Shown here one piece after another: positions 2,678 to 62,590 of a stretch of DNA of 64,000 nucleotides (positions are counted from its first letter, which is position 1; each line of letters begins with the position of its first letter). The notes beneath the pieces were generated by a model. That model worked only from the letters and a program-made list of their open reading frames with translations, was not told the DNA's origin and made no database searches. The DNA lies in the NCBI GenBank assembly GCA_965602275.1, contig CBFCXZ010000009.1:6719-70718 (forward strand). Direction: 5' to 3'. Made by a program: the position numbers and the translations under genes. The stretch is from an uncultured bacterium (GTDB taxonomy: Bacteria; Campylobacterota; Campylobacteria; Campylobacterales; Sulfurovaceae).

Positions 2678-4195
2678 ATGTTATATCAAATTTTAAAAGA
2701 TACGAGCGAACGGCTCCCCAATAAGATTGCAGCAGTCTATGATGACAGAGAGTACACATACCATGAACTGCTTCTTTTAACCGACCGTATGGCAAACGCT
2801 CTTTTGAGGCTTGGCATGAAAAAAGGGGATCGGCTTGCGTTTTATCTGTATAACTGCCCGGAGATCATCATCTGCTATTTTGCCTGCTTTAAGATCGCAG
2901 TCACGGTTATCCCCATCAATTACCGCCTCAAAGAGGATGAGGCACACTACATCATCGACCATAGCAAACCAACTGTTTTGATCAGTCAGAAGAGCCTGTT
3001 TTCACAAATTGCCGATAACATGCCTGAGTTGCCGAGTGTAGAGCGCAGTTATCTCATTGACACTGAGGGGGAGTTTGCCGATACCTTGCATTTTTCGGAT
3101 CTGATGAATCCGGTAGAAAGTCCAGCCACTTATGCTGAAATTCCGGGTAAGACAGAGGCTGCTGTCCTATATACTTCCGGAACGACAGGGAAACCCAAAG
3201 GTGCAGTGCTGGCGCATGACCAGATGATGACCCACACTGTTGGTCACTGCAAGTTGGTGAATTATCAGCCTCAGGACAGAACATTGGTATGTCTGGCACT
3301 CTCCAACAACTTTGCATTCAGTCATCAAATGCTTTCTGCTCTTTATACCGGTGCAACATTGGAAATCAATGCCGCTTTTGATCCGGATGAGGTGCTGGAA
3401 AAGATTGAAAAAAGCGGTATCACCATGCTCTATATGATGCCGGTAATGTTTCATGCGCTCAACAAACAAGCAGCAACAAAAAACCTTCCTATTCCGAATC
3501 AATTGCGCCTGGCTATTGTTGCAGGCGATACCACCCCCTTTGTGGTCTTGAACCGGTTCAAGGAGATATTTGGGTTGGAGATGTGTGAAGGGCTCGGCAT
3601 GGCCGAAACACAGATCTATGCGCTTAACCCTTTAGGAGAAGGAAAAAAGAGAGGCTCTGTAGGTTTGCCCGTTACTTACACGGAGGTTGCTATTCAAGAT
3701 GACCAGGGCAACCCATCACCGGTGGGTGAAACGGGGGAGATTGCAGTCAGGGGAGAGATTGTTATGCGGAGTTACCTGAATAACGCGAAGGTCACAGCAG
3801 AAAGCTTTCGCAACGGGTGGTTTCTGACCGGCGATCTTGGCTATTTTGATGATGACAGCTATCTGTGGTTCAGAGGACGCAGAAAACAGCTGATCCTCCA
3901 TGACGGCTCCAATATCTCACCCCAGGAAGTCGAAGAGGTCTTCTATCACCATCCGGCTGTTTTTGAAGTCGGTGTCATCGGTGTGCCGGATAAGTTTGAA
4001 GGAGAGATGGTGCATGCTTTTGTAGCACTGAAGCCAGAGGTTAAGGCTGTCAGCGAAGAGGAACTACTGGATTTTGCCAGAGAACACCTTGCCGATTATA
4101 AGCTGCCAGAAAGCATCACCTTTATCGATGCACTGCCCAAAGGTGCAACGGGAAAAATTGACCGTAAACTGCTTAAGCAATATGATAAAAATTGA
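2678..4195 (+). CDS. AMP-binding acyl-CoA synthetase / fatty-acid-CoA ligase
   Basis: YTSGTTGKPKG P-loop, GLGMAET, TGDLG, and C-terminal LPKGATGKIDRK. Confidence 0.93.
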   Translation: MLYQILKDTSERLPNKIAAVYDDREYTYHELLLLTDRMANALLRLGMKKGDRLAFYLYNCPEIIICYFACFKIAVTVIPINYRLKEDEAHYIIDHSKPTVLISQKSLFSQIADNMPELPSVERSYLIDTEGEFADTLHFSDLMNPVESPATYAEIPGKTEAAVLYTSGTTGKPKGAVLAHDQMMTHTVGHCKLVNYQPQDRTLVCLALSNNFAFSHQMLSALYTGATLEINAAFDPDEVLEKIEKSGITMLYMMPVMFHALNKQAATKNLPIPNQLRLAIVAGDTTPFVVLNRFKEIFGLEMCEGLGMAETQIYALNPLGEGKKRGSVGLPVTYTEVAIQDDQGNPSPVGETGEIAVRGEIVMRSYLNNAKVTAESFRNGWFLTGDLGYFDDDSYLWFRGRRKQLILHDGSNISPQEVEEVFYHHPAVFEVGVIGVPDKFEGEMVHAFVALKPEVKAVSEEELLDFAREHLADYKLPESITFIDALPKGATGKIDRKLLKQYDKN

Positions 4196-4318
4196 TGGGC
4201 TACGGTTTTTTCAACAATAGCAAAGTGGCTTCCGTCATCGCCTCGATATCGGTTTTAATGGTGGCTTCGGGAGAAGGGGTGGCAGTGAAGTTTTCTACTG
4301 TGTTGCATGCTCATATGC
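4100..4318 (+). repeat. Direct repeat copy 1 (live acyl-CoA ligase 3' end + dead amidohydrolase 3' end)
   Basis: Colinear with 6147-~6388. The first 96 nt have 10 mismatches. This copy has an internal deletion of about 20 nt. Confidence 0.92.
4200..4318 (-). pseudogene. Remnant of the M20 amidohydrolase 3' end
   Basis: Reads AYEHATQ*KTSLPP/frameshift/PSPEATIKTDIEAMTEATLLLLKKP*, versus the live VYKQAKQQKTSLPSLHSSYFAPPPETTIKTGIEAMTEAALLLLKKQ*. Confidence 0.88.
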
Positions 4319-4400
4319 AAGCAGGATTAGTATATTGGGAAAGAATTTTGCTATACTTGTTACAGATTTAAATAACTCGATTTTAAAATAGACAAAGGAG

Positions 4401-6125
4401 ATGTCAGCCATGAAAAAGTTTGCAGTGTATATGAGTATTGTATTTTTGATTTTTGTTGCCGGATGCGGTGGGGATAGTTCATCATCCATTGATCTGAGCT
4501 TGGGCTGTAAAAATAAAGCAGTCATTAACACCACGACCGGTTCATTTTGTGCGGCATCCGATTCTCCGGAAGATCTCAATGCCTACAAAGGGATCAAATA
4601 CGCAAAGGGCGGCCAGACATACCGTTGGCAATCCCCTGTAGCTGCAGATGACTTTGTTATTGCGAGAGAAGCAGGCACCTTTGGCAATGTTTGTGCGCAG
4701 CTAGATACTTCCATACTGGGAGCTGATGCTTTGGCTGCGTTGACAGACGATTTTAATGTCAGTTCCAAGGGGTCTGAAGACTGCCTTTTCCTTAATGTCT
4801 ATGCCCCTAAAGAGACCCAAAATGAGAAAAAACCGGTAGTTGTGTGGATCCCCGGAGGGGCATTTTTACTAGGAACCGGTTCTGACATCACCTTTAATCC
4901 GCAACATATTGCTGAATTTGAAGATATGGTTGTGGTGACACTCAACTACCGTCTTGGAATATTTGGCTTTTTAAACCTTCCCGATGCCTATAAAAAAGAG
5001 GGTGTCACCTCGGCAAACTTCGGCCTGCAGGATCAGGCAATGGCCATCAAATGGGTCTATGAAAACATTGAGCACTTCGGCGGCGACAAAGAGAAGATCA
5101 CCATCATGGGCCAGAGCGCCGGCTCCATGTCGGTCGGTTTTCACCTGGTCAACAATGACGCAGAGACCAGTAACTACTTCAGAGCTGCCATTATGCAAAG
5201 TCCCTACATGGGCTTTCCCATCAAAACAGATGAGCAGGCCCTGGATGTCGGAAGTTATTCGGCAAACGCAATGATAGAAGAGTGCAAGAAGGACGACAAT
5301 GTTTCTGATCCGATTCAGTGTCTATACGAAACACTTTCAACAGAAGATATTATTGTTGACATTGAGCTAACTGGGTTGACGACCTACCTTATTCAGGCCT
5401 TCTTCGTCAGCGGTTCATTTTCAGATATCTTTCCGTATGAGCCCTATATCGATAATGAGATGGTCAAGTCCAACCTGGTCGACGGCGAGATCAAAAAACC
5501 CCTGCTTATCGGAAACACTAAAAGCGAAAGCAACTTTTTTCTTGCGCTGATTAAGCCATATTACGATATTTCAACAGAAGCAGCCTATGAAAATTTTATC
5601 GACCACATGTTTAAGGATCTCAATAAAACAACACTCATGCAAATGTACCCTTACGAGAGTGAGGAGCCCGTAAAAGCGCTGGGAAATCTAGTCAGCGACT
5701 ACGCGTTTAAATGTGCAAGCACGACCTTTATAGAGACTGACACCTTTGCAGATACCTATATTTACAAATTTAATTTTGAGTCCGGGTTTAACCGATGGAA
5801 AGACGGCCCTATGTGTGACGCGCCTGCAGTGTGCCACTCTGCCGATCTTCCTTATACGTTCCATCAGTTCTACTACAGCGACGACACACCGATCCCGAAT
5901 GTAAGCGATAATGAAAAGAACTTCAGCGTTGCAATGATCGGCCGCTGGAGCGAATTTGACAAAACACATAGCCTGAACGGCTTTGCACCTTACAGCCCAG
6001 ACGTTGAGAACTTTATCGATATCAACAACACCGCACCTTACTTTTTTGAACAAAGCGGCACATTTTCAACAGAGCACAACTGTAAGTTTTGGAACGACTA
6101 TTATAAGGTACAGAAGAATCCTTAA
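4401..6125 (+). CDS. Type-B carboxylesterase/lipase family lipoprotein
   Basis: Lipobox FVAGC. SEDCLFLNVY, PGGAF oxyanion hole, GQSAG nucleophile, CHSADL His. Own RBS (AAGGAG) and TGCTATACT extended -10 near 4350. Confidence 0.93.
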   Translation: MSAMKKFAVYMSIVFLIFVAGCGGDSSSSIDLSLGCKNKAVINTTTGSFCAASDSPEDLNAYKGIKYAKGGQTYRWQSPVAADDFVIAREAGTFGNVCAQLDTSILGADALAALTDDFNVSSKGSEDCLFLNVYAPKETQNEKKPVVVWIPGGAFLLGTGSDITFNPQHIAEFEDMVVVTLNYRLGIFGFLNLPDAYKKEGVTSANFGLQDQAMAIKWVYENIEHFGGDKEKITIMGQSAGSMSVGFHLVNNDAETSNYFRAAIMQSPYMGFPIKTDEQALDVGSYSANAMIEECKKDDNVSDPIQCLYETLSTEDIIVDIELTGLTTYLIQAFFVSGSFSDIFPYEPYIDNEMVKSNLVDGEIKKPLLIGNTKSESNFFLALIKPYYDISTEAAYENFIDHMFKDLNKTTLMQMYPYESEEPVKALGNLVSDYAFKCASTTFIETDTFADTYIYKFNFESGFNRWKDGPMCDAPAVCHSADLPYTFHQFYYSDDTPIPNVSDNEKNFSVAMIGRWSEFDKTHSLNGFAPYSPDVENFIDINNTAPYFFEQSGTFSTEHNCKFWNDYYKVQKNP

Positions 6126-6146
6126 TGAAATCCCATCATAATATCA

Positions 6147-6388
6147 AAGCTACCGGAAAGCATCACTTTTATCGATGGACCACCTAAAGGTGCAACGGGA
6201 AAAATAGACCGTAAACTGCTAAAGCAATATGATAAAAGTTGATGAGCTACTGTTTTTTCAACAAAAGCAAAGCGGCTTCCGTCATCGCCTCGATACCTGT
6301 TTTGATAGTAGTCTCTGGAGGAGGTGCAAAGTATGACGAGTGTAAGGATGGCAACGAAGTTTTCTGCTGCTTTGCTTGTTTGTATACT
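6147..6388 (+). repeat. Direct repeat copy 2 (dead acyl-CoA ligase 3' end + live amidohydrolase 3' end)
   Basis: 6147-6242 translates KLPESITFIDGPPKGATGKIDRKLLKQYDKS*, versus the live KLPESITFIDALPKGATGKIDRKLLKQYDKN*. Confidence 0.92.
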
Positions 6389-7506
6389 GCAGGGTCAGTG
6401 GCACCCAATCTGAACATTAATGAAGGGATACGCGGTTCAATCCGGCCATAAAGTGTAAAATCTTCGCCGACCATAGAGGGTTGAATGTCTTTAACCTGCT
6501 CACGACCCAATCGCTTTTCAAAATGTTCTCGAATTCGTTGCGATAGTGCAGGGTCATTGTAGACTGCCGGTATATACTTTTGCTCTATATGAACTTCGGG
6601 CAGTTTGTCCTCCGGCATACCGAACGAGCGTGCCTGATTTTCCGCGATCCGTTTAATAGACGTGAGCACGTTTTTTCTTGTCTCTTCGGTATAGGTGCGC
6701 ACGGTGAGCTGCAGATCAACCTGTTCCGGGATATTCTCGCGCTTCATTCCTCCCTGAATGGTACCGACGGTCACAACGGCCGTATCTTCTGATGACACTT
6801 CACGCGATACGATGGTCTGCAGTGCGATCACGATATGTGCTGCCAGGACAATAGGATCTTTGGCAGAAGCTGGCATGGCTCCGTGACCGCCCTGACCAAA
6901 CACATTGATATCTACTGAGTCCACATTGGCAAAACTGTATCCGGACTGTACCGATACTGTACCACTGGGAAGTTCGGGGTGGACATGCAGGGCAAGATTA
7001 TAATCGGGCCGCACAAACTGCTCAAAAAGCCCATCTTCAAGCATTAATCGGGCACCGGCACCCTTCTCTTCAGCTGGTTGGGAGATCATCATCAGGGTGC
7101 CGGACCAGTGATCTTTCATAGCCGCCATTCTTCGGGCAGTCCCGATAAAAAGTGACATATGGATGTCATGGCCACAGGCATGCATGACCGGAAGGTTCTG
7201 TCCACTCTTTTCTTGGTGGTATTGTGTACTGCTATAGGGAAGTTCTGTTTTTTCCTTGACAGGCAGGGCGTCCATATCGGTGCGGATCATCACCGTTGGC
7301 CCCTCACCGTTGCACATCAGGGCAACCAAGCCGTATCCGCCAACCCTTTCGGTGACTTCAAAGCCGATTTCACGCAGCTCTTTTGCAAGGCGCTCAGCGG
7401 TTTTTTGTTCATGAAAGGAGAGTTCCGGATGGCTGTGAAGGTGCGTATACAGTTTATGAATATATGGATAATCCTTGTCAATCATATTTTTTAGTGTATT
7501 ATTCAT
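6247..7506 (-). CDS. M20 family (M20D, hippurate hydrolase/aminoacylase-like) amidohydrolase
   Basis: HSHPELSF, RTDMDALP, HACGHDIH, QPAEE, GEDF and LHSS motifs. Confidence 0.93.
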   Translation of the reverse strand: MNNTLKNMIDKDYPYIHKLYTHLHSHPELSFHEQKTAERLAKELREIGFEVTERVGGYGLVALMCNGEGPTVMIRTDMDALPVKEKTELPYSSTQYHQEKSGQNLPVMHACGHDIHMSLFIGTARRMAAMKDHWSGTLMMISQPAEEKGAGARLMLEDGLFEQFVRPDYNLALHVHPELPSGTVSVQSGYSFANVDSVDINVFGQGGHGAMPASAKDPIVLAAHIVIALQTIVSREVSSEDTAVVTVGTIQGGMKRENIPEQVDLQLTVRTYTEETRKNVLTSIKRIAENQARSFGMPEDKLPEVHIEQKYIPAVYNDPALSQRIREHFEKRLGREQVKDIQPSMVGEDFTLYGRIEPRIPSLMFRLGATDPAVYKQAKQQKTSLPSLHSSYFAPPPETTIKTGIEAMTEAALLLLKKQ

Positions 7507-7594
7507 CGGCAATACTCTGTGTAAAATCTGACAGGATCAAGACAAAGAGAAGCATAAATCCTGTTACTTTGCAGAGCCTTGTTTTATGCGACAA
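7499..7594 (-). pseudogene. Out-of-frame signal-peptide-encoding 5' segment of the amidohydrolase
   Basis: A TTG-started 31-codon ORF (MSHKTRLCKVTGFMLLFVLILSDFTQSIADE*) overlaps the main ORF start. Removing 1 nt near 7501 fuses them. Confidence 0.5.
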
Positions 7595-7823
7595 TCTCTC
7601 AGATAAATAGACTTTCATTATACCCATTTTTGTCATTATATCCCTCGCAAATTTATTTGGATTCCTTCTTTATTTTATCGAAAAAGAGACAAAAAACAAA
7701 ACTTCAATATCCGTCACTATCCGTTAAGGGTAATTTACATATAATATTTTAAGATGTTACGCATTGCACGTTATGAATGAAGTTATGAATACAGCTTGAA
7801 TTGAAAATATAAATGGAGAAGGG

Positions 7824-9203: not shown

Positions 9204-9230
9204 AAGGATATCAATAAAGGAATGGAGAAA

Positions 9231-11102: not shown

Positions 11103-11359
11103 GATACTTATTCCATTCCTTTATAGTGTTAATACCCAATTGATCTTATAATAGTATATCAATATTTATTAACACTTTAATAATATTTGAGTGATTTTAT
11201 GTATGCTATTCTATTTCTAAAAAATTCAGTATTTCCAAAGTTGAAATATCATTATGGACCTGCTGATCAAATTTGCAAAAAATAGTACAAAAGAGTAGAA
11301 TAATATAAAGAGCTATGTTAAAAAAATACTTTTTTTGATAAAGAGAAATAGGAGAAAGT

Positions 11360-20650: not shown

Positions 20651-20656
20651 TTATTA

Positions 20657-41844: not shown

Positions 41845-42222
41845 TTATCTGCGTCTTGCTCTGTAATGAGAAGATCGTTGATAATGGCTTCTGCTGTTGT
41901 AGTGACCATATCTACCATTTTCAGCACGATAGCGTCGCCCCTTATAGTGACGATATCCATTGTTGTAGTAGTGTCCATTACGATATCTGTTTCCACGATA
42001 ATGATAGTAGCCGTTTCGGTAATAACCTCCATAATAATACCTGCCACCATGATAATAATAGGGTTGATTATAATAATATGGATAATTGTAAGAAGAGAGT
42101 GCAACAACTGTTCCTCCTATTGCAACACCGGTAGCCAATGCCTGTTCTTCAGGTGTACAAGCTGTAAATAAGAGTGTTGAAGAGAGAACTGCGATCACTC
42201 CAAGCTTTTTAAATTTTGTCAT
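41845..42222 (-). CDS. Tyr/Gly/Arg-rich low-complexity lipoprotein (one repeat unit)
   Basis: Lipobox LFTAC. Same unit as 37149-37676. Confidence 0.82.
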   Translation of the reverse strand: MTKFKKLGVIAVLSSTLLFTACTPEEQALATGVAIGGTVVALSSYNYPYYYNQPYYYHGGRYYYGGYYRNGYYHYRGNRYRNGHYYNNGYRHYKGRRYRAENGRYGHYNSRSHYQRSSHYRARRR

Positions 42223-48059: not shown

Positions 48060-48135
48060 TGGTATCCCCACGAGGACTCGAACCTCGAGCTAGGCCTTAG
48101 GAGGGCCCTGCTTTATCCAGTTAAGCGATGAGGAC
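48060..48135 (-). tRNA. tRNA-Arg (anticodon CCT)
   Basis: 76 nt. Acceptor GTCCTCA/TGGGGAT, D stem GCTT/AAGC, anticodon arm GGGCC-CTCCTAA-GGCCT, T arm CGAGG-TTCGAGT-CCTCG, encoded CCA. Confidence 0.95.
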
Positions 48136-51209: not shown

Positions 51210-51505
51210 TGAAAAAGACTCCTAGAAAAAATTAATTATAATAGCCTTAGATTCCAACCGATACAAATATCGGGGAACCTTCTTGATTATTTTATCTGTC
51301 ATAGTAACACATAATTGTCAAAATATGTCAAAAAATATTAATTATAATAAATTTCTGTTTTACGTATATTTACGCTATAATGCCACACTAATTTAAGCGT
51401 ACATCGGTCAACTCTTTTATTCTTCATAAATCAAAAACACTAACTTAGCCTAGGACCGACCTCATACTAAAGATGGTAGGCTCGTTCAATAAGGTATAAA
51501 ATATA

Positions 51506-52831
51506 ATGTCATTTACAAACTTGGGGTTATCTGAACCTCTACTAAAAGCGATCAAAGAGCAGGGGTATGATACTCCTACACCCATACAACTACAAGCTAT
51601 TCCTACTGTTATAGAAGGTAAGGATGTTCTCGCAGCAGCACAAACTGGAACAGGTAAAACAGCAGGATTTACTTTGCCACTGCTTGAGAGACTTTCTCAA
51701 ACAGATCCTAAAATGCAAAAAAAACAGATACGCGTTTTGGTACTTACACCTACACGTGAACTTGCTGCACAGGTGGCCGAAAGTATTAAGACATATGGTA
51801 AATATGTACCATATACTTCTACTGTTATCTTCGGTGGCGTTGGAATAAACCCACAACTTGCAACCATACGAAAAGGGGTTGATATCGTCATCGCTACGCC
51901 GGGGAGACTTTTAGACATTGCAGGACAAAAAGGTATAGACTTTTCAGCGCTTGAATGTCTGGTTCTCGATGAGGCTGATCGCATGCTTGACATGGGATTC
52001 ATACATGATATTAAAAAGCTTATGAAACTTATGCCACAACAAAAGCAAACTTTACTCTTCTCTGCAACCTTCTCCAGTGATATCAAAAAATTGGCATCAG
52101 GACTTCTTAAAGACCCTGTGCTTGTTGAAGTAGCAAGAGAAAATACTACTGCTGATCAAATAAGCCAAGTGGTGCACTATGTCGATAAAGGTCGTAAAAG
52201 AGAGTTGCTTTCTCAGCTCATCAAGACTAAAGACTGGAGACAGGTTTTAGTCTTTACTCGTACTAAACACGGTGCAAACAAGCTGACTAAGCAGCTTGAA
52301 GAGTATGGTATAAGCGCAGCTGCTATACATGGAAACAAAAGTCAAGGGGCTAGAACCAAAGCATTGGCCTCTTTCAAAGCAAATGAAATCCGTGTACTTG
52401 TAGCTACAGACATTGCAGCACGTGGAATAGACATAGACCAGCTACCGCATGTAGTTAACTATGAACTTCCAAATGTACCGGAAGACTACGTGCACCGTAT
52501 TGGTAGAACAGGGCGTGCAGGGCAGAGTGGTGAGGCAGTTTCTTTGGTGTGTATTGATGAGCATAAATTACTCTTTGACATAGAAAAATTTATTAAGTCG
52601 GATATCAAAAAAGTACATATTGAAGCATTCACACCAGACCCTAGCATCAAGGCAGAACCTATACAAAATGGTAGAGGTGGTGGACAACGACAAGGTGGAA
52701 ATTCACGTAACAGCAACTCACGTAATAAGCCCCGTAGTAATTCTTCGCATGCCAACAACGGTGGTAGTCGTGATGGTGCCAGAAGTAACAGTAGAAATAG
52801 AAATCGTAATAGAAATAAAGCAGAAGGATAA
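51506..52831 (+). CDS. rhlE: DEAD-box RNA helicase, RhlE-like
   Basis: [27 protein letters not shown] and an R/N/G-rich tail. Confidence 0.9.
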
Positions 52832-52836
52832 TTAAT

Positions 52837-53166
52837 ATGAAAAAAATATTTAAATTAACAGATGAAAAAAAACATGAAGACCGCGTACTCGAAGCAGTAA
52901 AAAATGACATCCGTAAGTATGTAAAACGTGAACGCAAGAAAAAGCTTCCTGATGCAGCTACAATGTACTGGGATTTTGACTGTCGTATAGGTGAAAATGC
53001 TGATAAAGCTGAAGTAGTTGTGTTTGAAGAACTTATCAAGGCTTTAGATAAAGTCAAAGCTTCAGGGGCAACAGAGTGTTATGTTGAGATATTGGCAAAA
53101 ACAGTCGATAAACCAGTTAAAGAAGCAGTTGAAGCTGTTCAGGAAGAAATAAACGAAGAGGAGTAG
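52837..53166 (+). CDS. DUF6172-like hypothetical protein
   Basis: MKK.FKL…R.LEA.K.DIRKY.KRER.K.LP…WDFDC…Y.EILAK pattern. Confidence 0.78.
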   Translation: MKKIFKLTDEKKHEDRVLEAVKNDIRKYVKRERKKKLPDAATMYWDFDCRIGENADKAEVVVFEELIKALDKVKASGATECYVEILAKTVDKPVKEAVEAVQEEINEEE

Positions 53167-53169
53167 CAT

Positions 53170-53292
53170 ATGATGAAAAAGTTTTATGTATTAGTTTCAA
53201 TCATTATGATAGGATTCTTTATATCGGGATGTGCAACATGGCATGGAGCCAAAAAAGATACAAGCCGTGTATGGGATGTCGTAACATCATAG
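53170..53292 (+). CDS. Entericidin EcnA/B-like small lipoprotein (40 aa; absent from the ORF track)
   Basis: GGAG RBS. MMKKFYVLVSIIMIGFFISGCATWHGAKKDTSRVWDVVTS*, with lipobox ISGC. Followed by a terminator. Confidence 0.8.
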   Translation: MMKKFYVLVSIIMIGFFISGCATWHGAKKDTSRVWDVVTS

Positions 53293-53326
53293 ACCTATAG
53301 ACGCAACATCAGTCTCCTAGTGAGCC

Positions 53327-53360
53327 AAAAAGGATAGAAGTATAACTTTCTATCCCTTTT
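53327..53360. terminator. Intrinsic terminator (potentially bidirectional)
   Basis: AAAAAGGATAGAA…TTCTATCCCTTTT. Confidence 0.7.
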
Positions 53361-53383
53361 GATATATGGGCACCGCTAAAAAC

Positions 53384-53468
53384 CATTCCTCCTTCAACCA
53401 AAGAGCATCTTCTTTTTTATTACTTTTAACCTTTTTCTCATATTCTTAACTAATAGTAAACATCAATT
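53384..53468 (-). pseudogene. Dead duplicate of the pilT/pilU 3' end
   Basis: About 12 mismatches over 85 nt versus 57440-57524. Reads LMFTIS*EYEKKVKSNKKEDALWLKEE versus LLFTLSQEYEKKVNTNKKENDLSLKNE. Confidence 0.88.
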
Positions 53469-53523
53469 ATAAGATAAGAAAAACTAAAATATTTTTATTT
53501 ATTTATAATAAAAATCTCATTTT

Positions 53524-53555
53524 GGCACATTTTTGGCACATTTTTTAGGTATACT
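53524..53555 (+). promoter_or_regulatory. Tandem GGCACA-N5-GGCACA box plus TATACT -10 upstream of the FIST gene
   Basis: 11-bp periodic repeat with 9-nt spacing to TATACT, the same geometry as 37722-37738. Confidence 0.5.
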
Positions 53556-53631
53556 AATAAAACAAGGAAGTTTGAGAGTTTATTATATCTCTAACCAGTA
53601 ATGATTTAAGTATTATAGATGAGGGTATATA

Positions 53632-54750
53632 ATGGCTGATATTATTTTTGATCCAACAGGCTCCATAGAAAGTTTTACTAACAACATTAATATACTCAGC
53701 TCTAAAAATGAGTCCGTTATGATCTTGGCATGTGATGCCAATGGGTTTAAAAAAGAGTTGATCGATCCTATTCTTCTGAAACATACTATCTCTATCATAG
53801 GTGGTATTTTCCCCTCTATCATTTATAATGCCAAGAAATATGATCAAGGTACACTTTTTATTGGTCTTAATGACAAAATGCAGGTCAATGTCATTAAAGA
53901 CATCAGCCAAAAAGATTATGATAAGTTGGATGGGGATATGGAAGAACTGATAGGTGATTTTGATAAATCTGTCAGAACCATGTTCGTTTTTATAGATGGG
54001 TTGACAAAACATATCGGTAAATGTATCAATGTTCTATTTGACAATTATGGTCTGGAGATCAATTATATTGGCGGAGGTTCCGGCTCACTCAGCTTTGAAC
54101 AAAAACCTTCACTTTTTACCAATTACGGACTCCTACAGGATGCTTTGGTTTATGCCTATTCGAAACGTCAAAGTTCTATAGGTGTCAGGCATGGTTGGAA
54201 AAGTATCAGCGGACCTTACCAGGTCACTAAGTCGGAAGCTACCATAATCAAAGAACTCGATTACAAACCGGCATTTGAGCTATATAAAGGTGTCGTAGAC
54301 CAATACGCTTCTGAACCTATCAATGAAGAGAACTTTTTTGAGATTGCCAAATCATTTCCCTTTGGTATCAACAGTGTTTCCGATACAAAAATAGTACGTG
54401 ATCCGATCATCTTAAATGGTACAGAAATGGTTTGTGTCGGAAATGTAGAAGAGGGTATTTATGTCGATATCTTAGAGGGAAGCAGTGATGCATTGCTAAA
54501 AGCTGCAAAAGATGCTGCAGATATCAGTCAGGAATATATGAATTTTGAAAATGATTTTACCCTGTTTATAGACTGTATCTCACGTGTACTATTTTTGGAA
54601 GAGAACTTTGATGGGGAAATTAAAGCAGTCTATAAGGGTAATGCCCCACTTGTAGGAGCATTGACATTTGGTGAAATTGCCAATAACGGTAGAGATTATC
54701 TGGAATTTTACAATAAAACATCTGTAGTAGGACATATAGGTCATGGATAA
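53632..54750 (+). CDS. FIST N/C domain protein (NosP-like)
   Basis: IGGIFP, IGGGSGS, HGW…G, FIDCISR.L and GALTFGEI…FYNKTSVVG. Confidence 0.9.
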   Translation: MADIIFDPTGSIESFTNNINILSSKNESVMILACDANGFKKELIDPILLKHTISIIGGIFPSIIYNAKKYDQGTLFIGLNDKMQVNVIKDISQKDYDKLDGDMEELIGDFDKSVRTMFVFIDGLTKHIGKCINVLFDNYGLEINYIGGGSGSLSFEQKPSLFTNYGLLQDALVYAYSKRQSSIGVRHGWKSISGPYQVTKSEATIIKELDYKPAFELYKGVVDQYASEPINEENFFEIAKSFPFGINSVSDTKIVRDPIILNGTEMVCVGNVEEGIYVDILEGSSDALLKAAKDAADISQEYMNFENDFTLFIDCISRVLFLEENFDGEIKAVYKGNAPLVGALTFGEIANNGRDYLEFYNKTSVVGHIGHG

Positions 54751-57292
54751 AAATCCGCTGCTATTGGCACTTTATGAAATCTCAATGTCTATAGGGAATA
54801 CACTTGAGCTTAACGAAATGCTTAACGAAAGTGTAAGAATGATATTGAGCAGACTTAACTGTTCTTCAGCGGCTATATATCAAAAGCGTGACAGTAAGTC
54901 TGAGTTGCTCTATGCTAAACCCAAAGTATTGATTAAGAACGAAGCCTATGTTTCTGTTGTGCAAGCACTTGAAGAGAAATTTTATAATAGTAATAGTCCT
55001 GGTCCTGTCTTGATAGAGAAGTTTGATGACAGATATTACTATCTTTTTGAATTGAAGAACTGTGGTTATCTTGTATTGACCAAATCAGATGATTCTCTTG
55101 ATGATTTTGTGCTAAATTCCCTGCAACAGATAAACCTAAAACTTGTCAATGCTATCCAGGCCTGTATAGATAATGCAAAGCTTCGTGAGAGTGAAGCCCG
55201 ACTAGCCAGTACACAAAGAATTGCCCATCTTGGAAGCTGGACGACCTCATTCCCCTCTATGCATCTTCATTGGGATGATGAAATATTTCGTATTTTTGGT
55301 GAATATCCTCAAAGTTTTACGCCAACATATAAGCAGCTTGCTCGCCGCCTCACAAGTAGGTCGCAAGAAAAACTACGCAAAGCAATATATCTAATTATGG
55401 CTAAAAAAAAGAGCCATTATGAGAGTGTATTTGAAATCATAAAAAAAGATGGATCGATCGGTTTTATACAAGTTCAAAGTAAAATTGTTTTTGATCCACA
55501 GGGAAAGCCAACTTATTTACTTGGAACCACTTTTGATATTACTAAGCAGAAGCAGCTTGAAGAGCAAATTCGAAAAGAGAGTACCTTGCTTAAAAGTATT
55601 ATTAACACAATACCTATTAGGATATTTTGGAAAGATTTAGAGTCACGATATTTAGGCGGTAACAATCTTTTTGCTCAGGATGCAAACCTGAAAGATGAAA
55701 GTCACCTTATCGGGAAAGATGATTATGATATGCCATGGAAAAATGAGGCTGAACTGTATCGTGCATTGGACAATAGTGTTATAGATACGGGCATTGCAAA
55801 ACTAAATGTTGAAGAACCTCTAACAGACAAGAATGGTATACTGAGATGGATTTCTACATCCAAAGTACCCTTGATAGATGAATATGGAAAGATCTTTGGT
55901 ACCTTAGGCACCTATCTGGATATAACGAATAAAAAAGAAAATGAAAAGAATTTGAAGCTACAACGTGATGCCTTAGCGCATCAAGCCTATCATGATACCT
56001 TAACCGGACTTCCCAACCGTTCACTCTTTTTGGACAGACTTAATCAATATATCCATAAAGCACATCGTAATAAACATAAGGTTGCTGTCTTGTTTATTGA
56101 TATGGATAGGTTTAAAGAGATCAATGACTCACTTGGACATGTATTTGGTGACAAAACCATCAAAGAGGTTGCACGAAGAATAGAGAGTCAGATACGTGAA
56201 ACAGATACGCTAGCCCGTTTTGGTGGAGACGAGTTTATAATGATTTTTAATGATATAAAAAACTCAATTTCCATTGTGAATATTGTACAAAAAGTGATGC
56301 AGAGTATGGATAATCCTATTACTATTGAAGGGCATAGTGTCTATGTTACATTAAGTATTGGTATCAGTATCTATCCTGATGATGCTGATACGTCTGATGA
56401 TCTTTTAAAAAATGCTGATGCAGCAATGTACAAAGCTAAAAATGATGGACGTAACACGTATAGGTTTTATACTGAAGATATGACAAAAAAAGCTTTTGAA
56501 CGTATGGCATTAGAATCAAGTCTGCGTCAGGCCATAAAAGATGACGACTTTATGCTTTATTTTCAGCCACAAGTTGATGGAGAGAGTGATGAGGTCATTG
56601 GTATGGAAGCTTTGTTACGATGGGAACATAGGAGTATGGGTTTTATTCCTCCTGACAAGTTTATTGCTATTGCGGAGGAAACGGGATTGATTATTCCTTT
56701 GGGTAAGTGGATATTGAGAACGTGTATGCGACAGATGGTAAAATGGTATGCCAAGGGCTTGCATCCAGGAACTTTAGCTATAAATATTTCTATGATACAA
56801 CTTCAAAAAGATGATTTTGTTTCAATGTTGGAGATGATACTGAAAGAGACAATGTGTCAACCCCAGTGGATTGAAATAGAAGTGACGGAAAGTCAGATCA
56901 TGAAAAATCCTGAACAAACGATTCTGACGCTTCAAGAGATCAGTAAATTAGGTATAGAGATATCGATTGATGATTTTGGTACAGGTTATTCATCGCTATC
57001 TTATCTTAAACGTCTTCCTATTGATACGCTTAAAATTGATCGATCTTTTGTAAAAGATATTCCTGATGATGAGGAAGATATAGAAATTGTTAAAGCGGTG
57101 ATTGCTCTTGCAGGGAGTTTAAATCTACGTGTTATTGCCGAAGGGGTTGAAACTGAAGATCAAAAAGTGTTTTTAGTGAAAAATGGGTGTAAAAATATTC
57201 AGGGATATTTATATGCCAAACCAATGCCGGCTGATGAAATGGAGAAAATACTAAGGGAATCTTTGCAAGAAGAGATCGATTTACTTGTATAA
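54743..57292 (+). CDS. GAF-like-PAS-PAS-GGDEF-EAL diguanylate cyclase/phosphodiesterase
   Basis: RFGGDEF with an RETD I-site. EAL, DDFGTGYSS and EGVET intact. Overlaps the FIST gene. Confidence 0.94.
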   Translation: MDKNPLLLALYEISMSIGNTLELNEMLNESVRMILSRLNCSSAAIYQKRDSKSELLYAKPKVLIKNEAYVSVVQALEEKFYNSNSPGPVLIEKFDDRYYYLFELKNCGYLVLTKSDDSLDDFVLNSLQQINLKLVNAIQACIDNAKLRESEARLASTQRIAHLGSWTTSFPSMHLHWDDEIFRIFGEYPQSFTPTYKQLARRLTSRSQEKLRKAIYLIMAKKKSHYESVFEIIKKDGSIGFIQVQSKIVFDPQGKPTYLLGTTFDITKQKQLEEQIRKESTLLKSIINTIPIRIFWKDLESRYLGGNNLFAQDANLKDESHLIGKDDYDMPWKNEAELYRALDNSVIDTGIAKLNVEEPLTDKNGILRWISTSKVPLIDEYGKIFGTLGTYLDITNKKENEKNLKLQRDALAHQAYHDTLTGLPNRSLFLDRLNQYIHKAHRNKHKVAVLFIDMDRFKEINDSLGHVFGDKTIKEVARRIESQIRETDTLARFGGDEFIMIFNDIKNSISIVNIVQKVMQSMDNPITIEGHSVYVTLSIGISIYPDDADTSDDLLKNADAAMYKAKNDGRNTYRFYTEDMTKKAFERMALESSLRQAIKDDDFMLYFQPQVDGESDEVIGMEALLRWEHRSMGFIPPDKFIAIAEETGLIIPLGKWILRTCMRQMVKWYAKGLHPGTLAINISMIQLQKDDFVSMLEMILKETMCQPQWIEIEVTESQIMKNPEQTILTLQEISKLGIEISIDDFGTGYSSLSYLKRLPIDTLKIDRSFVKDIPDDEEDIEIVKAVIALAGSLNLRVIAEGVETEDQKVFLVKNGCKNIQGYLYAKPMPADEMEKILRESLQEEIDLLV

Positions 57293-57317
57293 TCTTTTAA
57301 GAAGTTCATATCGAGAC

Positions 57318-57370
57318 AGGGTAGAGTATCTCTTCATGTACTTTATCGTAAGCTTTTAAGATCTCATCAC
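57318..57370 (-). pseudogene. Dead duplicate of the aldo/keto reductase 3' end
   Basis: 44/53 nt identical to 61574-61626. Reads DEILKAYDKVHEEILYP versus DEILKACDKVHEEILYP. Confidence 0.85.
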
Positions 57371-57438
57371 AGTAAACTAATCGCATTCTCGCGTCAAGAA
57401 TGAGGATAACGCATGAGAGGATAGAAAATAAATCTCTA

Positions 57439-58584
57439 TCATTCGTTCTTCAACGAAAGATCATTTTCTTTTTTATTAGTATTAACCTTTTTCTCATATT
57501 CTTGACTCAAGGTAAACAGCAATTTGAGATCAGAAGGACTGGTTGCATACTGATAGGCTTGCTCTTCTGTGATCTTGTCTGTTAATGTGAGGTCAAATAG
57601 TGCCTGATTAAAGTCGATAGAGTCAAAACTGATCCCCTCTTTTTTAATAGCGTCCGGGATTTCATTATCCCGTTTAGCTCGAATAAGCTCTTTAATAAGA
57701 GGGCTTTTAAACATCATTTCAACAGCTGGTAGCATATCTCCGGATATTCCTTGAATCAAACGCTGAGAAATAACTGCTTCAAGGGTAGCAGCTAGTGTTG
57801 CACGTACACGATTCTGCTCATTTGTAGGGAAAATAGCAATGAGTCGGTCAACCGTTTCACGCGCATCTAAAGTATGTAGCGTTGAGAAAACAAGATGCCC
57901 TGTGTTTACAGCTTGTAAAATACTTTCAGCTGTAGCAATATCACGTATTTCACCAACAACAATAATATCCGGATCTTCACGCATTGCTGCACGTAATGCT
58001 CCAGAAAAGCTGTTAGTATGCATTCCTACTTGTCGTTGTTCAACGATAGATTTATTATCATGATGCATATACTCTATAGGATCTTCGATAATGATGATAT
58101 GTCGCTGATACGTCCTATTTATCTCTGCAATTAGACTTGCAAGTGTCGTAGATTTTCCACTCCCTGTAGTACCGGTGACAAGAACAAGACCTCGTCGAAA
58201 GTGGACAAGTTTATGTAAGGCTGTTGGAAGATTCAATTCTTCAATACGCTTAATATCTGAGGGGATCAAACGAAAAACTATCGCAAAACCACCAAGATGC
58301 ATATAAATATTAACCCTAAAACGGTATTTATCATTTAGGGAATAGGCCCCATCAAACTCTTTGGTCTCTTTAAAGCTTTCATACGCATTAGCAGTCAATG
58401 CTTTAATAACTGCCTCGATCGTTTCTGCTTTTATCACTTCTTTAGATAAAAGAACAATTTCACTTTTAAAACGTGCACGTATAGGACTATCACTTTTAAT
58501 ATGTAGATCGGCTCCTCCTGCCTCAATTAACATTGTTAACCAAACATCCAATCGCTTCATTGCGTCCTGATCGAATAAAGACAT
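57439..58584 (-). CDS. pilT: PilT/PilU family type IV pilus retraction ATPase
   Basis: RFRVN.Y, GTTGSGKSTTL, IEDPIE, REDPD.I.VGEIRD and TGHLVFSTLHT. Confidence 0.88.
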   Translation of the reverse strand: MSLFDQDAMKRLDVWLTMLIEAGGADLHIKSDSPIRARFKSEIVLLSKEVIKAETIEAVIKALTANAYESFKETKEFDGAYSLNDKYRFRVNIYMHLGGFAIVFRLIPSDIKRIEELNLPTALHKLVHFRRGLVLVTGTTGSGKSTTLASLIAEINRTYQRHIIIIEDPIEYMHHDNKSIVEQRQVGMHTNSFSGALRAAMREDPDIIVVGEIRDIATAESILQAVNTGHLVFSTLHTLDARETVDRLIAIFPTNEQNRVRATLAATLEAVISQRLIQGISGDMLPAVEMMFKSPLIKELIRAKRDNEIPDAIKKEGISFDSIDFNQALFDLTLTDKITEEQAYQYATSPSDLKLLFTLSQEYEKKVNTNKKENDLSLKNE

Positions 58585-58796
58585 ATTTCACTCCTCCACT
58601 AATACTTTTATCTTTATTGTACACTTTAATTAGGATGAATACAACCATTGTTTGTAAAATGTGTAGATTACATTAACATCGTATCCATCCATTCCCTGAT
58701 TCCAAGTTTAGCTTTGATCGATACTTAAATTTATATGACAAAAAAGTTATAATAGTTCTATTAAATATCTATATATCAAAGCAGAGAGAACGCAAC

Positions 58797-60893
58797 ATGA
58801 ATTCACTGATCAATCTATTGGCACAAAAAACAAAACTCAAACAAACTTACATCACCAACATTCTTAAACTCATGGATGAAGGTGCAACCATCCCTTTCAT
58901 TGCACGGTATCGTAAAGAGATGACGGGTGGGGCGAGTGATGAAGTGTTACGCGAGTTTGAAGGTGTGTATTTAAGTGTTAAAAAACTGCTGGAACGTAAA
59001 GCAGAGATAGAGAGGCTTATCCAGGAGAGAGGTGTATTGACCGATGCCATCAAGAAGAGCATCACCTTTGCAGATAGTCTAAGAGTGTTGGAAGATATCT
59101 ATCGTCCGTATAAAGAGAAGAAAAGCTCACGTGCAGCGACTGCCATTGCAAATGGTTTAAAACCACTTGCCTATACCCTACAGAGTGCAAAACTGAGTCT
59201 TGGTGATTTTAAAGCCCAGGCAAAAATGTTTGTAAAAGGTAAGGTCAGTTCTGTTGAGGATGCCATCAAAGGTGCACAGGACATCTTGGCAGAACGTTAT
59301 GCAGATCAGCCACGTGAGCGTGAAGCCATACGCAACTCTATGTTGCGTTTTGGTACCATCGAAACCAAGAAAGCCAAAGGGTTTAATGAGAGAGGGTTGT
59401 ATACTAATTTCATCAAACATTCTGAGAAAGTAGTCTACATTCCTTCTCATCGTTACTTAGCCATAATGCGAGGGGTTAAAGAAAAAGAACTTTCGGTTAA
59501 AGTCACACTTGACATAGCAAGAATAGAAGAGAATATTAAAAAATATAAAATACCTCGTGATGCGTCATCTTCTAAGGAACTGCTGTTCTTAGCGTATAAA
59601 GATGGACTTAAACGTCTCTTGTTACCATCCATAGAAAGAGAAGTACAGGCAGAGTTAAAAGAGAAAGCTGATATCGCTGCCATTGGTGTTTTTGGAAAAA
59701 ATCTAAATCAACTTCTTATGACACCACCTGTGATAAAAAGAGTTATTTTGGGTGTTGATCCTGCTTTTAGATCGGGCTGTAAACTGGCTGTCATAGATGA
59801 GAATGGAAACTACTTGGAACATGCTGTCATCTACCCAACAGACCCTCGAAACGAGTATGAAAAGTCTAGAGATGTGATACTGAAACTCTCTAAAAAATAT
59901 AATATTCAAGCCGTTGCTATAGGAAATGGAACTGCTTCAAGAGAAACGCAAGAGTTTTTTGCCCGTTTAAACACAGATGAGGATGCAAAACTGAACTATA
60001 CTGTGGTCTCTGAAGCTGGGGCATCGGTGTATTCTGCTTCTGTCATCGCAGCGCAAGAGTATCCGAAACTTGATGTGACCATACGTGGTGCTATCTCCAT
60101 TGCACAAAGATTACGTGACCCTATGGCAGCTTTAGTAAAAATAGATCCTAAGTCTTTAGGCATCGGGCAGTACCAACATGATGTAGACCAAAAACTTTTA
60201 GAAAAAAAACTTTCTGATGTAACACAAGACCTTGTAAACAGAGTAGGGGTTGACCTCAATTCTGCCTCTGCTTCACTACTCTCTTATGTGGCTGGTGTAG
60301 GAGCAAAAGTAGCACAAAATATCATCGCATACAGAGAAGAGAACGGCTACTTTACTTCTAAAGAACAACTCTTAAAAGTCAAAGGTTTAGGGACTAAAGC
60401 ATACGAACAGGCTGCAGGTTTTGTTCGTATTAAAGAGGGTAGATCTGTATTTGACAACAGTGGCATACACCCTGAGAGTTACGCTGTAGCCAAACGCTTA
60501 GAGGGGTTGGAGTTAGAAAAAATAGATGTCAGGACGATGGCAGAAGAGTTAAAAATAGGAGAAGAAACCCTAAGAGATATTATCAAAGAACTTTTAAAAC
60601 CAGGCTTTGATCCCAGAGAAGAGTTGCCGGCTATTCCTTTTAAAGAGGGTATAACAGATATCAAAATGCTGCGTGAAGGATCTGTTGTCTCCGGTGTTGT
60701 ACGAAATATAGCAGATTTTGGTGCATTTGTAGATATAGGTTTGAAAAATGACGGCATGATACATATTTCAAAGATGAGTAGCAAACGCATTGCTCATCCT
60801 CTTGAAGTGCTTTCACTCAATCAATTTCTACCACAAATAGAAGTGATCTCCATAGATGAAGAGAAGGGAAAAGTAGGGCTTAGTTTATCTTAA
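58797..60893 (+). CDS. tex: Tex family RNA-binding transcriptional accessory protein
   Basis: TIPFIARYRKEMTG, GVDPAFRSGCK, SEAGAS.YSAS, HhH motifs and an S1 domain. Confidence 0.95.
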   Translation: MNSLINLLAQKTKLKQTYITNILKLMDEGATIPFIARYRKEMTGGASDEVLREFEGVYLSVKKLLERKAEIERLIQERGVLTDAIKKSITFADSLRVLEDIYRPYKEKKSSRAATAIANGLKPLAYTLQSAKLSLGDFKAQAKMFVKGKVSSVEDAIKGAQDILAERYADQPREREAIRNSMLRFGTIETKKAKGFNERGLYTNFIKHSEKVVYIPSHRYLAIMRGVKEKELSVKVTLDIARIEENIKKYKIPRDASSSKELLFLAYKDGLKRLLLPSIEREVQAELKEKADIAAIGVFGKNLNQLLMTPPVIKRVILGVDPAFRSGCKLAVIDENGNYLEHAVIYPTDPRNEYEKSRDVILKLSKKYNIQAVAIGNGTASRETQEFFARLNTDEDAKLNYTVVSEAGASVYSASVIAAQEYPKLDVTIRGAISIAQRLRDPMAALVKIDPKSLGIGQYQHDVDQKLLEKKLSDVTQDLVNRVGVDLNSASASLLSYVAGVGAKVAQNIIAYREENGYFTSKEQLLKVKGLGTKAYEQAAGFVRIKEGRSVFDNSGIHPESYAVAKRLEGLELEKIDVRTMAEELKIGEETLRDIIKELLKPGFDPREELPAIPFKEGITDIKMLREGSVVSGVVRNIADFGAFVDIGLKNDGMIHISKMSSKRIAHPLEVLSLNQFLPQIEVISIDEEKGKVGLSLS

Positions 60894-60912
60894 TTATGCA
60901 AGATGAAACCCA

Positions 60913-61350
60913 TTAAATCTTCTGTGCAGGAATAATCATTACGGGGATATCCGAATGATGTAGCACTCCCTCGCTGGTACTACCAAGAATCAGATGAGTT
61001 AGCGCACCTTTTTTATGTGAACCCATTACAATGATATCGGCAGTGTGATGTTTGGCTTGATTGAGAATAGTTTTGACTGTCTCACCCTGTATTAAAAGCG
61101 CGGTTGTTTTCAGCCCTGATTCCTCAAACTGACTTGCATATAATTGCAACTGGCGATGCTCTTTATGAAACTCTTCTGCATGAACATCACGCATCACTTC
61201 TGTATCTACCTTGCTACCGACAAACTCCGGTTCAGGCTCAGCAACGTGCAGCAGCCAGACTTCTGCATCTGTAGCTTTAGCAAATTTAATTGCTTCATCA
61301 ATAACATTAGAGGATATTTCCGATAAATCAACAACAACTTGTATTTTCAT
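60913..61350 (-). CDS. Universal stress protein (UspA family)
   Basis: V.VD.S, LLHV, DIIVMGSH and LGSTSEGVL…PVMII. Confidence 0.92.
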   Translation of the reverse strand: MKIQVVVDLSEISSNVIDEAIKFAKATDAEVWLLHVAEPEPEFVGSKVDTEVMRDVHAEEFHKEHRQLQLYASQFEESGLKTTALLIQGETVKTILNQAKHHTADIIVMGSHKKGALTHLILGSTSEGVLHHSDIPVMIIPAQKI

Positions 61351-61564
61351 TTTTCTCTCTTTATCTTTTTAGAATATTTTTGCCCAGAAACTGTAGCATC
61401 AAGCCACATTTTTTCAATTATCTCTACTACTCGAATATCATCATACCCTAAATAGTGGATTTTCTATGTACTCAACTTTCGCACATAAAGGTATTTTTAC
61501 TTACGGTACTAAATATCTTTTTCTGCTGTTTCATTAAGTAGTTCATCTCTCCACTACAACGTGG

Positions 61565-62590
61565 TTATCCCATAGGATAAAGTATCTCTTCGTGAACTTT
61601 GTCACAAGCCTTTAATATCTCATCACTGAGTGTCAGGTTCATCGCTGCAAGTGATGCATCGAGTTGCTCTGCATTGGTTGCACCGATGATGGTAGATGCT
61701 ACAAAATCAAACTGTTTTGACCAGGTAGTAGCCAGTGTAACAGGGTGCAATCCTGCATCTGCTGCTATTTTGAGATATTTTTGTGTGGATGCCAATGTTT
61801 TGTCATTCATAAAACGTTGTGCCATGGCTCTTTGTCTAGTGTTTGGTGATTTTAAATAGTCTGCAAACCTTCCTTTGGCTTCTTGTGGGCTCAGTGCTTG
61901 ATTGTACTTTCCGGAGAGTACCCCTCCGGCAAGCGGTGAGTAGGGGAGTAGTGAGACTTGTTCATTTTTACAAAGTGTAGAGAGTTCATCTAAAAATCTC
62001 CGGTTAAGTAGTGAGAAGTTGTTTTGTATGGATTCAAATTGTGCATATCCTTTATACTGAGAAGTCATTAAGGCTTTACTTGTACCGTAAGCTGTATCAT
62101 TGGAAGTACCTATATAACGTACTTTTCCTGCTTTTACCAGCCTGTCAAATGCTTCAAGTGACTCTTCTATAGGAACTATAGTATCTGGCCAATGCATCTG
62201 GTAGAGATCGATGTAGTCTGTTTTAAGTTTTTTCAAACTTCCTTCTACTGCACGTTCGATGTGAAATCTGTCTATGGCTGTCAACCCATGACGAATAGGA
62301 GGAACAAACCAACCACTTGCAGCACCCGCAACTTTAGTCGCAAGGATGATGGAGTCACGTGCTTTGGTCTGCATCCATTCACCGACCCACTCTTCAGTAA
62401 TACCGGCGAGTTTCCCCTCAGGGGGAACAGGGTAGAGTTCTGCAGTGTCGTAGAAGTTTACACCATGATCATAGGCTTTATCCATAATTTTAAAAGCCTC
62501 TTTTTTGTCACATTGTGTACCAAAAGTCATAGTCCCCATACAGATGGGGGAGACACGAAGACCTGTTTTTCCTATGTACCGATGTTGCAT
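61565..62590 (-). CDS. Aldo/keto reductase (Tas-like)
   Basis: GTMTFG, DTAELYP, LATKV, DYIDLYQMHWP and QNNFSLL. Confidence 0.93.
   Translation of the reverse strand: MQHRYIGKTGLRVSPICMGTMTFGTQCDKKEAFKIMDKAYDHGVNFYDTAELYPVPPEGKLAGITEEWVGEWMQTKARDSIILATKVAGAASGWFVPPIRHGLTAIDRFHIERAVEGSLKKLKTDYIDLYQMHWPDTIVPIEESLEAFDRLVKAGKVRYIGTSNDTAYGTSKALMTSQYKGYAQFESIQNNFSLLNRRFLDELSTLCKNEQVSLLPYSPLAGGVLSGKYNQALSPQEAKGRFADYLKSPNTRQRAMAQRFMNDKTLASTQKYLKIAADAGLHPVTLATTWSKQFDFVASTIIGATNAEQLDASLAAMNLTLSDEILKACDKVHEEILYPMG

Follow-up and report, generated by a model that had tools for sequence, protein, structure and literature searches.

How does a set of genes come to lie between the intact end of one gene and a second, diverged and dead copy of that same end? 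The question is raised by a 64,000-nt stretch of DNA (hereafter the window) from an uncultured bacterium of the Sulfurovaceae, Campylobacterota (GCA_965602275.1, contig CBFCXZ010000009.1), which corresponds to C9:6719-70718 of the genome handled here as G000 (39 contigs, 2.2 Mb, 37.5% GC) and in which genes were identified with Pfam profiles. The names of its homologues assign the genome to Sulfurovum, in the Campylobacterales. A preliminary description of the window had pointed to three such arrangements, each with cargo genes held between a live and a dead gene end. In the reading that we favour, these orphan ends are neither the work of a recombinase nor simple local duplications; we propose, tentatively and with a probability of roughly 0.45, that they are recombination scars left when alternative versions of a locus were joined by homologous recombination on one side and illegitimate joining on the other, in the manner of homology-facilitated illegitimate recombination (HFIR), followed by recombination in the flanks. 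Gene addition without mobile-element machinery is poorly documented beyond laboratory selections.

All three repeat pairs are borne out by alignment and by self-blastn of the 2.2-Mb genome. The first pair (4100-4331 versus 6147-6399, E = 5e-55) encloses a carboxylesterase gene between two copies of a junction of an acyl-CoA ligase and an M20 peptidase, the second (53384-53485 versus 57440-57540, E = 7e-21) encloses a FIST gene and a PAS-GGDEF-EAL gene (a putative diguanylate cyclase, DGC) between a dead (p') and a live 3' end of a pilT-like gene, and the third (57318-57370 versus 61574-61626, E = 3e-6) encloses pilT, tex and usp between a dead (a') and a live 3' end of an aldo/keto reductase (AKR) gene. 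The identity of about 83-90% first given for the copies holds for the second pair (83-86%) and the third (83%, over 53 nt with a longest perfect run of ~11 nt), whereas the first is 87% identical across its initial 178 nt and 76% identical overall, including a 22-nt deletion in the left copy.

The arrangement recurs across the genome, as the preliminary description had supposed. Among the two-copy short repeats of the genome self-blastn whose copies lie within 8 kb of each other there are 14 unique local pairs, every one of them direct and none inverted, and about nine of the 14 are gene-end scars (the three in the window and six elsewhere). Left out of this count were tandem paralogues, a contig-end k-mer and two rejected candidates, namely X9 (C15 36185/42380), a pair resembling thiamine pyrophosphate riboswitches by eye, and X4 (C1 185916/187652), which proved to be two intact paralogous open reading frames of ~52 aa (MK..ALRMIEEEMP..) on either side of nhaA (C1:185899-187835). 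Scar copies range from 76 to 89% in identity and from 53 to 250 nt in length, and their longest perfect runs are ~10-23 nt in most repeats and 62 nt in scar X1.

Gene 3' ends had been put forward as the site of accretion, and this does not stand, for scar formation is not confined to them. Two scars lie at gene 5' ends (nitrilase and hrpB; C1 121899/123733 and C2 12014/14903), and the relative G006 (L032, G006:C1 11867-18958) carries a double 5'-end scar between AKR and the neighbouring gene g255, with copies 79% and 85% identical, in the order live AKR, cargo, dead g255 5' end, dead AKR 5' part, cargo, live g255. Moreover, scars occur as nested pairs at hot spots: a HAD gene and a nucleotidyltransferase (NT) gene that are 9 nt apart in relatives stand 8 kb apart here with two scars between them (HAD-A-had'-B-nt'-C-NT), and C3 holds another site built in this way. 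In addition, nhaA has next to it a dead fragment of the hrpB 3' region (C1 186081-186171, with 80% identity to C2 17253-17340), a location far from live hrpB.

The cargo across scars consists of esterase, FIST/DGC, tex, usp, nitrilase, SOD, glycosyltransferase and YaeQ genes. Pfam annotation of all cargo genes revealed no integrase, transposase or other recombinase, in agreement with the first report on this DNA, and the inserts are below 20 kb and devoid of mobility genes. Similarly, tRNA and Rfam scans of the window gave no match at the repeats, the sole tRNA (48060-48135) being located away from the scars. Repeats of other kinds are also present. A 113-nt direct repeat family (37287-37534 and 41965-42077 of the window, 66-76% identity) lies within two paralogous lipoprotein genes, and an intergenic family of ~100-140 nt with many copies of 76-90% identity is dispersed over the genome (C5:15663-15905, C23:35062-35424, C24:3193-22160 and ~30 other sites) and has no relation to the gene-end scars.

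Are the orphan ends decayed duplicates of their live neighbors, or are they alleles of another lineage? Pooled over ten coding segments, live and dead copies differ at first, second and third codon positions in the proportion 36:21:99, a third-position share of 63%, which compares with 77% for true AKR orthologues and with the 44-47% predicted for in-situ duplication followed by neutral decay of one copy. The observed share rejects duplication with neutral decay (P < 2e-5) and also rejects the pure case in which both copies stayed live; a mixture of ~70% allelic divergence and ~30% decay would fit the pooled codon data. Polarisation against outgroups places 36 of 79 changes on the dead branch, where decay from the live copy would lead one to expect at least 67-75% (P = 7e-5 to 2e-8), and genus-typical states are often kept in the dead copy where the live copy is derived, as in AKR and in the nucleotidyltransferase (NRY*). 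Since the split from a sister species, dead copies have gained 13 changes versus 6 in live copies, and orphan ends thus evolve about twice as fast as live ones once dead. Because dead and live branches are near parity despite this faster decay, much of the divergence must predate the death of the copies. At the pooled level the data support the view that much live/dead divergence is allelic. They require that the two copies usually come from different lineages and that the host's own recombination is able to join them.

The signal is uneven among scars. It is clean in a', in X1 (codon positions 5:0:22, with no indel in 213 nt) and in X2 (3:2:14), and decayed in p' and on the dead M20 branch. 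The earlier proposal that dead copies evolved as functional alleles before displacement therefore stands for the pooled data, in which 63% of differences are at third positions and 36 of 79 polarised changes are on the dead branch, and is weak case by case, p' and the dead M20 end being flat over codons. GC content at third codon positions (GC3) was tried as a marker of foreign copies and dropped, given that the live and dead halves of X1 have 0.49 versus 0.44 and relatives span 0.15-0.66; the live HAD gene, at 0.54, is an outlier relative to the genome (0.32 +/- 0.06).

These data bear directly on a purely local history, in which the locus was duplicated in tandem, paralogues persisted or decayed, and deletions and replacements left gene-end remnants. 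Such a duplication joint would produce the non-ancestral junctions a'|pilT in the window and g255'|AKR' in G006, the timing does not make it impossible (the scars are ~2.3 times as old as the sister split), and change on the dead branches of M20 and pilT has a neutral look. Local decay is nonetheless rejected by the pooled third-position excess and by a dead branch about equal to the live branch, the same pooled tests that dispose of simple duplication with neutral decay, the condition named at the outset as fatal to a transfer origin. Moreover, relatives have single copies, the cargos between copies are mutually unrelated, and long-lived intact paralogues would be demanded at six or more loci, all of them truncated recently. 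We regard a local history as highly improbable.

The second and third repeats of the window, presented originally as independent, are interleaved parts of one composite that is older than a species split. The order in the window is DUF6172 - p' - [FIST, DGC] - a' - pilT - [tex, usp] - AKR. DUF6172 (52837-53166, + strand) is followed by p', the dead pilT 3' end recognized by alignment (53384-53485, with a remnant of the downstream hairpin at 53334-53351, the whole spanning 53334-53485 on the - strand), and then by the FIST gene (53632-54750, +) and the DGC gene (54743-57292, +). The dead AKR 3' end a' (57318-57370, -) adjoins the pilT 3' end at a seam; the PilT-like ATPase gene (Pfam T2SSE) occupies 57439-58584 on the - strand, its live 3' end aligning with p' over 57439-57540. 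Beyond it lie tex (58797-60893, +), usp (60913-61350, -) and the AKR gene (Pfam Aldo_ket_red, 61565-62590, -), whose live 3' end (61574-61626, -) matches a'.

Relatives in the same genus reveal what this locus looks like when it is empty. Their order is DEAD and DUF6172 on one strand, convergent on pilT and AKR on the other, followed by g255, and it is compact in G014, G017 and G019, relative to which the junction of a' with the pilT 3' end is non-ancestral. The FIST-DGC cargo is missing between DUF6172 and pilT in relatives, and pilT and AKR are neighbors in most of them, with tex and usp between the two in the window; tex itself is present in only 8 of the 25 genomes searched. The sites also hold other genes in other lineages. 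A lipoprotein gene occupies DUF6172|pilT in G001, G002, G006, G016 and G024 where FIST-DGC stands here, gene content varies among relatives at pilT|AKR and AKR|g255 as well, and in G007 pilT and tex are adjacent, other genes separate tex from AKR, and a FIST-DGC pair lies on the 5' side of AKR. Empty sites in other genomes were found for all junctions, as had been anticipated.

The two dead ends of the composite differ in condition. Between a' and live AKR the differences by codon position are 0:1:8, and 7 of 8 changed codons are synonymous, exactly as first noted; between p' and live pilT they are 6:3:5, and p' is interrupted in frame by a TAA and no longer has a stop codon of its own. A greater age of p' than of a' would fit these states, because p' is decayed and bears an in-frame stop and a' is clean. 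The composite with both scars recurs in the sister species, which comes from three further metagenomes and whose identity over 51344-63393 is 92.4%. There p' has CAA at the position of the in-frame TAA, so that the stop arose after the species split. The sequence of a' is 100% identical between the window and the sister species, and that of p' 87%; a' may since have taken on a role, perhaps that of a terminator for the converging DGC and pilT genes.

The first repeat has a different setting. Each copy contains the two ends of a tight convergent junction, J1 being the live ligase with a dead M20 end and J2 a dead ligase end with the live M20. The ligase gene (2678-4195, +; Pfam AMP-binding and AMP-binding_C) ends in the left half of J1 (4100-4195, +, aligning to 6147-6242), and the right half is the dead M20 3' end m' (4200-4331, -), which has its 22-nt deletion after 4277 and was recognized by aligning it with 6247-6399 and with the orthologous M20 genes of L041 and L042. 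The cargo is the carboxylesterase gene (4401-6125, +; Pfam COesterase, E = 1e-86). In J2, the dead ligase end l' (6147-6242, +) retains by alignment its frame and stop codon with 3 of 29 residues changed, and the live M20 3' end (6247-6399, -) belongs to a Peptidase_M20 gene at 6247-7512 on the - strand. Differences between l' and the live ligase end are 0:3:7 by codon position, and changes on the m' branch are even across positions. The M20 part is nearly equidistant among J1, J2 and the locus L042 (J1-J2 79.1%, J1-L042 79.8%, J2-L042 78.3%), and strict polarisation, with both outgroups agreeing, assigns 10 changes to the dead and 8 to the live copy, a count that leaves the pooled result as it was. 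L042, on contig DAOWOG010000020 of a Helicobacteraceae metagenome-assembled genome (MAG), is the empty site, with ligase and M20 directly convergent and no esterase between them; the esterase occurs at another location in a Campylobacterota MAG.

This scar sits within a foreign island, because the region is GC-rich and because the M20 and esterase genes were not found in any of the 40 relatives searched. The first ~20 kb of the window (1-20300) have a GC content of 0.44-0.49 versus 0.36, and hold xanthine-dehydrogenase-type genes, three AMP-binding ligases, the esterase, the M20 gene, an SSF transporter and others. The closest M20 matches, at 80-84% aa identity, are in Campylobacterota and Helicobacteraceae MAGs, and the scar may have formed in a different lineage. 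With the second and third repeats interleaved and the first in an island of its own, the three cases do not count as independent recent events.

Could the arrangement be an artefact of assembly from co-assembled related populations? Such populations do seem to be at hand, as contigs C35, C38 and C39 of the genome imply a congener co-occurring in the sample. These contigs carry second housekeeping copies (addA/addB-like, carA, nuo) with 70-86% identity to stretches of C16/C17, and these represent either a co-occurring congener binned in or a population-level homeologous variant; C39 and the end of C8 have a 55-mer in common. Independent assemblies of at least five samples, made with two pipelines, nevertheless contain the scar-bearing sequence at 99.9-100% identity: the region of the second and third repeats has its match in at least five other sample assemblies (ERZ25073476, ERZ25073475, SRR26215682, SRR26215709, ERZ25073482), and a 94-kb contig of ERZ25073476 covers the first repeat as well. 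Exact-protein look-ups of DUF6172, the ligase and AKR returned the identical arrangement on every contig retrieved, with no strain-level empty site, and no exact-protein record was found for the M20 protein as delimited here. The composite with both scars recurs, moreover, in the sister species, and a chimeric join would be unable to produce an orphan gene tail joined to unrelated cargo. Because the same sequence is present in at least five independent sample assemblies, one of them spanning the first repeat, assembly chimerism, another of the conditions named as fatal, is excluded for practical purposes; the composite and the first scar are genuine and the artefact explanation is effectively refuted.

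What kind of event would leave such remnants? The gaps ligase|M20, DUF6172|pilT|AKR and HAD|nucleotidyltransferase are variable sites whose cargo differs by lineage. Under the HFIR-like reading, DNA of another lineage would enter the cell, most probably by natural transformation; one end would undergo homologous or homeologous recombination in a conserved flanking gene, and the other would be joined illegitimately at a point some tens to hundreds of bases into a flanking gene's resident copy. An event of this type amounts to an insertion coupled to a partial replacement. The incoming piece would supply an intact, diverged allele together with the cargo, and the untouched tail of the gene, probably the resident one, would be left behind as the dead copy. 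Repeated rounds would set locus versions end to end, as in DUF6172-p'-FIST-DGC-a' | pilT-tex-usp-AKR, and completed composites could then pass between species via ordinary flank recombination. We favour events of this type, which would need no duplication, no circle and no crossover within a short repeat. They would lead to remnants of variable length, to both 5' and 3' remnants, to seams such as a'|pilT, and to passengers from the donor context such as the hrpB piece by nhaA; a' beside pilT and the hrpB fragment beside nhaA do look like donor context carried in with the cargo.

Exchange in the flanks has left traces of its own. Compared with the sister species, third-position identity is 87-91% across the inner block from FIST to usp and 77% in the DEAD and AKR flanks. 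The AKR gene is a recombination mosaic, with a breakpoint ~155 nt from its 3' end and a patch of ~200 nt (61720-61920) that is ~20% diverged from the sister species versus ~5% for the rest of the gene and the usp-AKR spacer; when AKR was compared with five congeners in sliding windows, no clear foreign 3' end was revealed. Across 20.3 kb, ERZ25073475 differs from the window 19 times, and 16 of these differences fall within 122 nt of the FIST gene (54414-54535), a cluster that is either a short import from a donor ~13% diverged or a hypervariable segment; the variant has no match to the G007 allele. Flank exchange would be consistent with the mosaic AKR and the more diverged flanks, and neither is tied to the original scar event. 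The genome (99.99% complete) contains ComEC and DprA domains, and no MutL domain was found in it; such a gene complement would support active recombination between lineages.

Several observations weigh against the HFIR-like reading. Significance is reached only in the pooled, genome-wide data, the single cases of the window being weak, and polarisation with distant outgroups is noisy and drifts to 50:50. Competence is putative, resting on the two domains just named, and between sequences 15-20% diverged, homeologous recombination should be rare even in cells lacking mismatch repair. The locus versions predicted for the time before the event (DGC convergent on an intact AKR; esterase-l'-M20) were not found in any donor or recipient genome, with the consequence that the illegitimate joints cannot be inspected for microhomology; the closest FIST homologues lie in the same composite (92%), at an unrelated site in S. 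lithotrophicum and in a GGDEF cluster. Finally, scar X1 is chimeric, with 97% identity to the live copy over its first 90 nt, where the 62-nt perfect run lies, and 80% over the following 123 nt. Such a pattern is not predicted by pure HFIR, and a crossover in a pre-existing repeat or a later gene conversion would be required. Because of X1, two other models are still viable for at least some events.

In the first of these, the insert arose in situ by insertion with long target duplication (of the Nobusato/Furuta type), and one copy together with its flanking gene was later replaced by a diverged allele. The topology is that of the published cases, with repeats longer than 30 bp, often over start or stop codons, and no mobility genes; the 97% and 80% halves of X1 would fit a recombination tract ending within an originally identical repeat; and short imports are seen directly, if the FIST cluster of single-nucleotide differences is one. 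The model requires two steps at every scar, however, and published repeats are near-identical and closer to each other than to the empty site, whereas the nine scars described here are 76-89% identical and none is young, half of X1 excepted. As a general account we consider it unlikely.

The second is a Campbell-type integration, in which circular or circularised foreign DNA carrying the cargo and a short gene-end fragment enters by a single RecA crossover in that fragment, close to the additive single-crossover capture that the preliminary description inferred. Its topology of left fragment, cargo and full gene matches every scar, it accounts directly for diverged copies, and the 62-nt perfect run of X1 beside a diverged half resembles a crossover point. 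The crossover would, on the other hand, have to fall in repeats that go down to 53 nt and 83% identity and whose longest perfect runs are ~10-23 nt; the FIST-DGC cargo bears remnants of two genes (p' and a'); and X1 lacks the reciprocal chimeras, three of its four half-segments being of one type and one copy alone chimeric. A circular single crossover is neither shown nor needed and is unlikely for the shortest repeats, and as an explanation of the scars at large we hold it to be improbable.

A wider proposal, which we put forward as doubtful, is that the orphan ends are the trace of a general, recombinase-free mode of accessory-genome building in competent Campylobacterota lacking mismatch repair, where locus versions of different species would be concatenated by one homologous crossover and one illegitimate join and where the orphan end would then serve as portable homology for excision, transfer and re-integration by RecA alone. 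If the mode were general, past transfers could be detected and oriented from orphan ends across whole genomes, donor gene order could be reconstructed from scars, and one could estimate how much illegitimate recombination contributes to accessory-genome growth in environmental Campylobacterota. The cargo genes are ordinary ones (esterase, cyclic di-GMP module, tex, usp). The interest is mechanistic: how insertion with long target duplication arises has been an open question since 2000, and allelic joining offers a testable explanation. About nine dated scars with consistent geometry and a measurable allelic signature suggest that some 'duplications' are really the joined ends of two alleles, and, if the wider proposal is true, many long-target-duplication repeats never were duplications.

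How do these scars compare with known systems? Integrase-borne islands that enter the 3' end of a tRNA, tmRNA or, in some cases, protein gene bring a replacement for that end with them. Like them, the inserts described here have a displaced, diverged native 3' fragment at their far end; unlike them, they have no integrase and no short identical att core, their repeats are 53-250 nt long, and 5' ends are also hit. Since no recombinase is present, islands of this kind are excluded. Minimal mobile elements of Neisseria are reportedly the subject of Saunders & Snyder 2002 and Snyder et al. 2007. They are conserved gene pairs that enclose different whole-gene cassettes, exchanged through flank homology after transformation (PMC3082526). 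Similarly, conserved flanking genes here enclose different cassettes in different genomes. In those elements, however, replacement is by double crossover and leaves no orphan ends, whereas here the cassettes add up and each step leaves a scar.

HFIR itself consists of insertions coupled with deletions in naturally competent species and is known from transformation of Acinetobacter baylyi, Streptococcus pneumoniae and Pseudomonas stutzeri (PMC3240628). The present scars resemble it in being recombinase-free, and one homologous and one illegitimate end would leave a truncated resident gene by the insert. They differ in that known HFIR comes from laboratory selections, whereas these are natural scars with putative illegitimate joints. 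To our knowledge, no natural HFIR scars with an incoming diverged, intact allele of the truncated gene have been catalogued.

Insertion with long target duplication was reportedly described by Nobusato et al. in 2000, in Gene 259:99. Its repeats exceed 30 bp and often lie over start or stop codons, mobility genes are absent, and it is known mostly from competent species, including Helicobacter and Campylobacter; the published repeats are 97-100% identical and flank restriction-modification genes (Furuta et al. 2010, PMC2853133). The likeness is considerable, since here too direct repeats longer than 30 bp match a single copy at the empty site (ligase|M20 in L042, DUF6172|pilT|AKR in G014, G017 and G019, HAD|NT in relatives), and the known cases in Helicobacter and Campylobacter belong to the same phylum as this organism. 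In contrast to those cases, the copies here are not near-identical, the M20 copies are no closer to each other than to the empty site, the cargo consists of ordinary metabolic, signaling and housekeeping genes, and the scars, which are nested or interleaved, predate a species split and show a bias to synonymous change. Collectively, these comparisons place the orphan ends as a diverged, old and nested relative of insertion with long target duplication, and as a finding of moderate interest.

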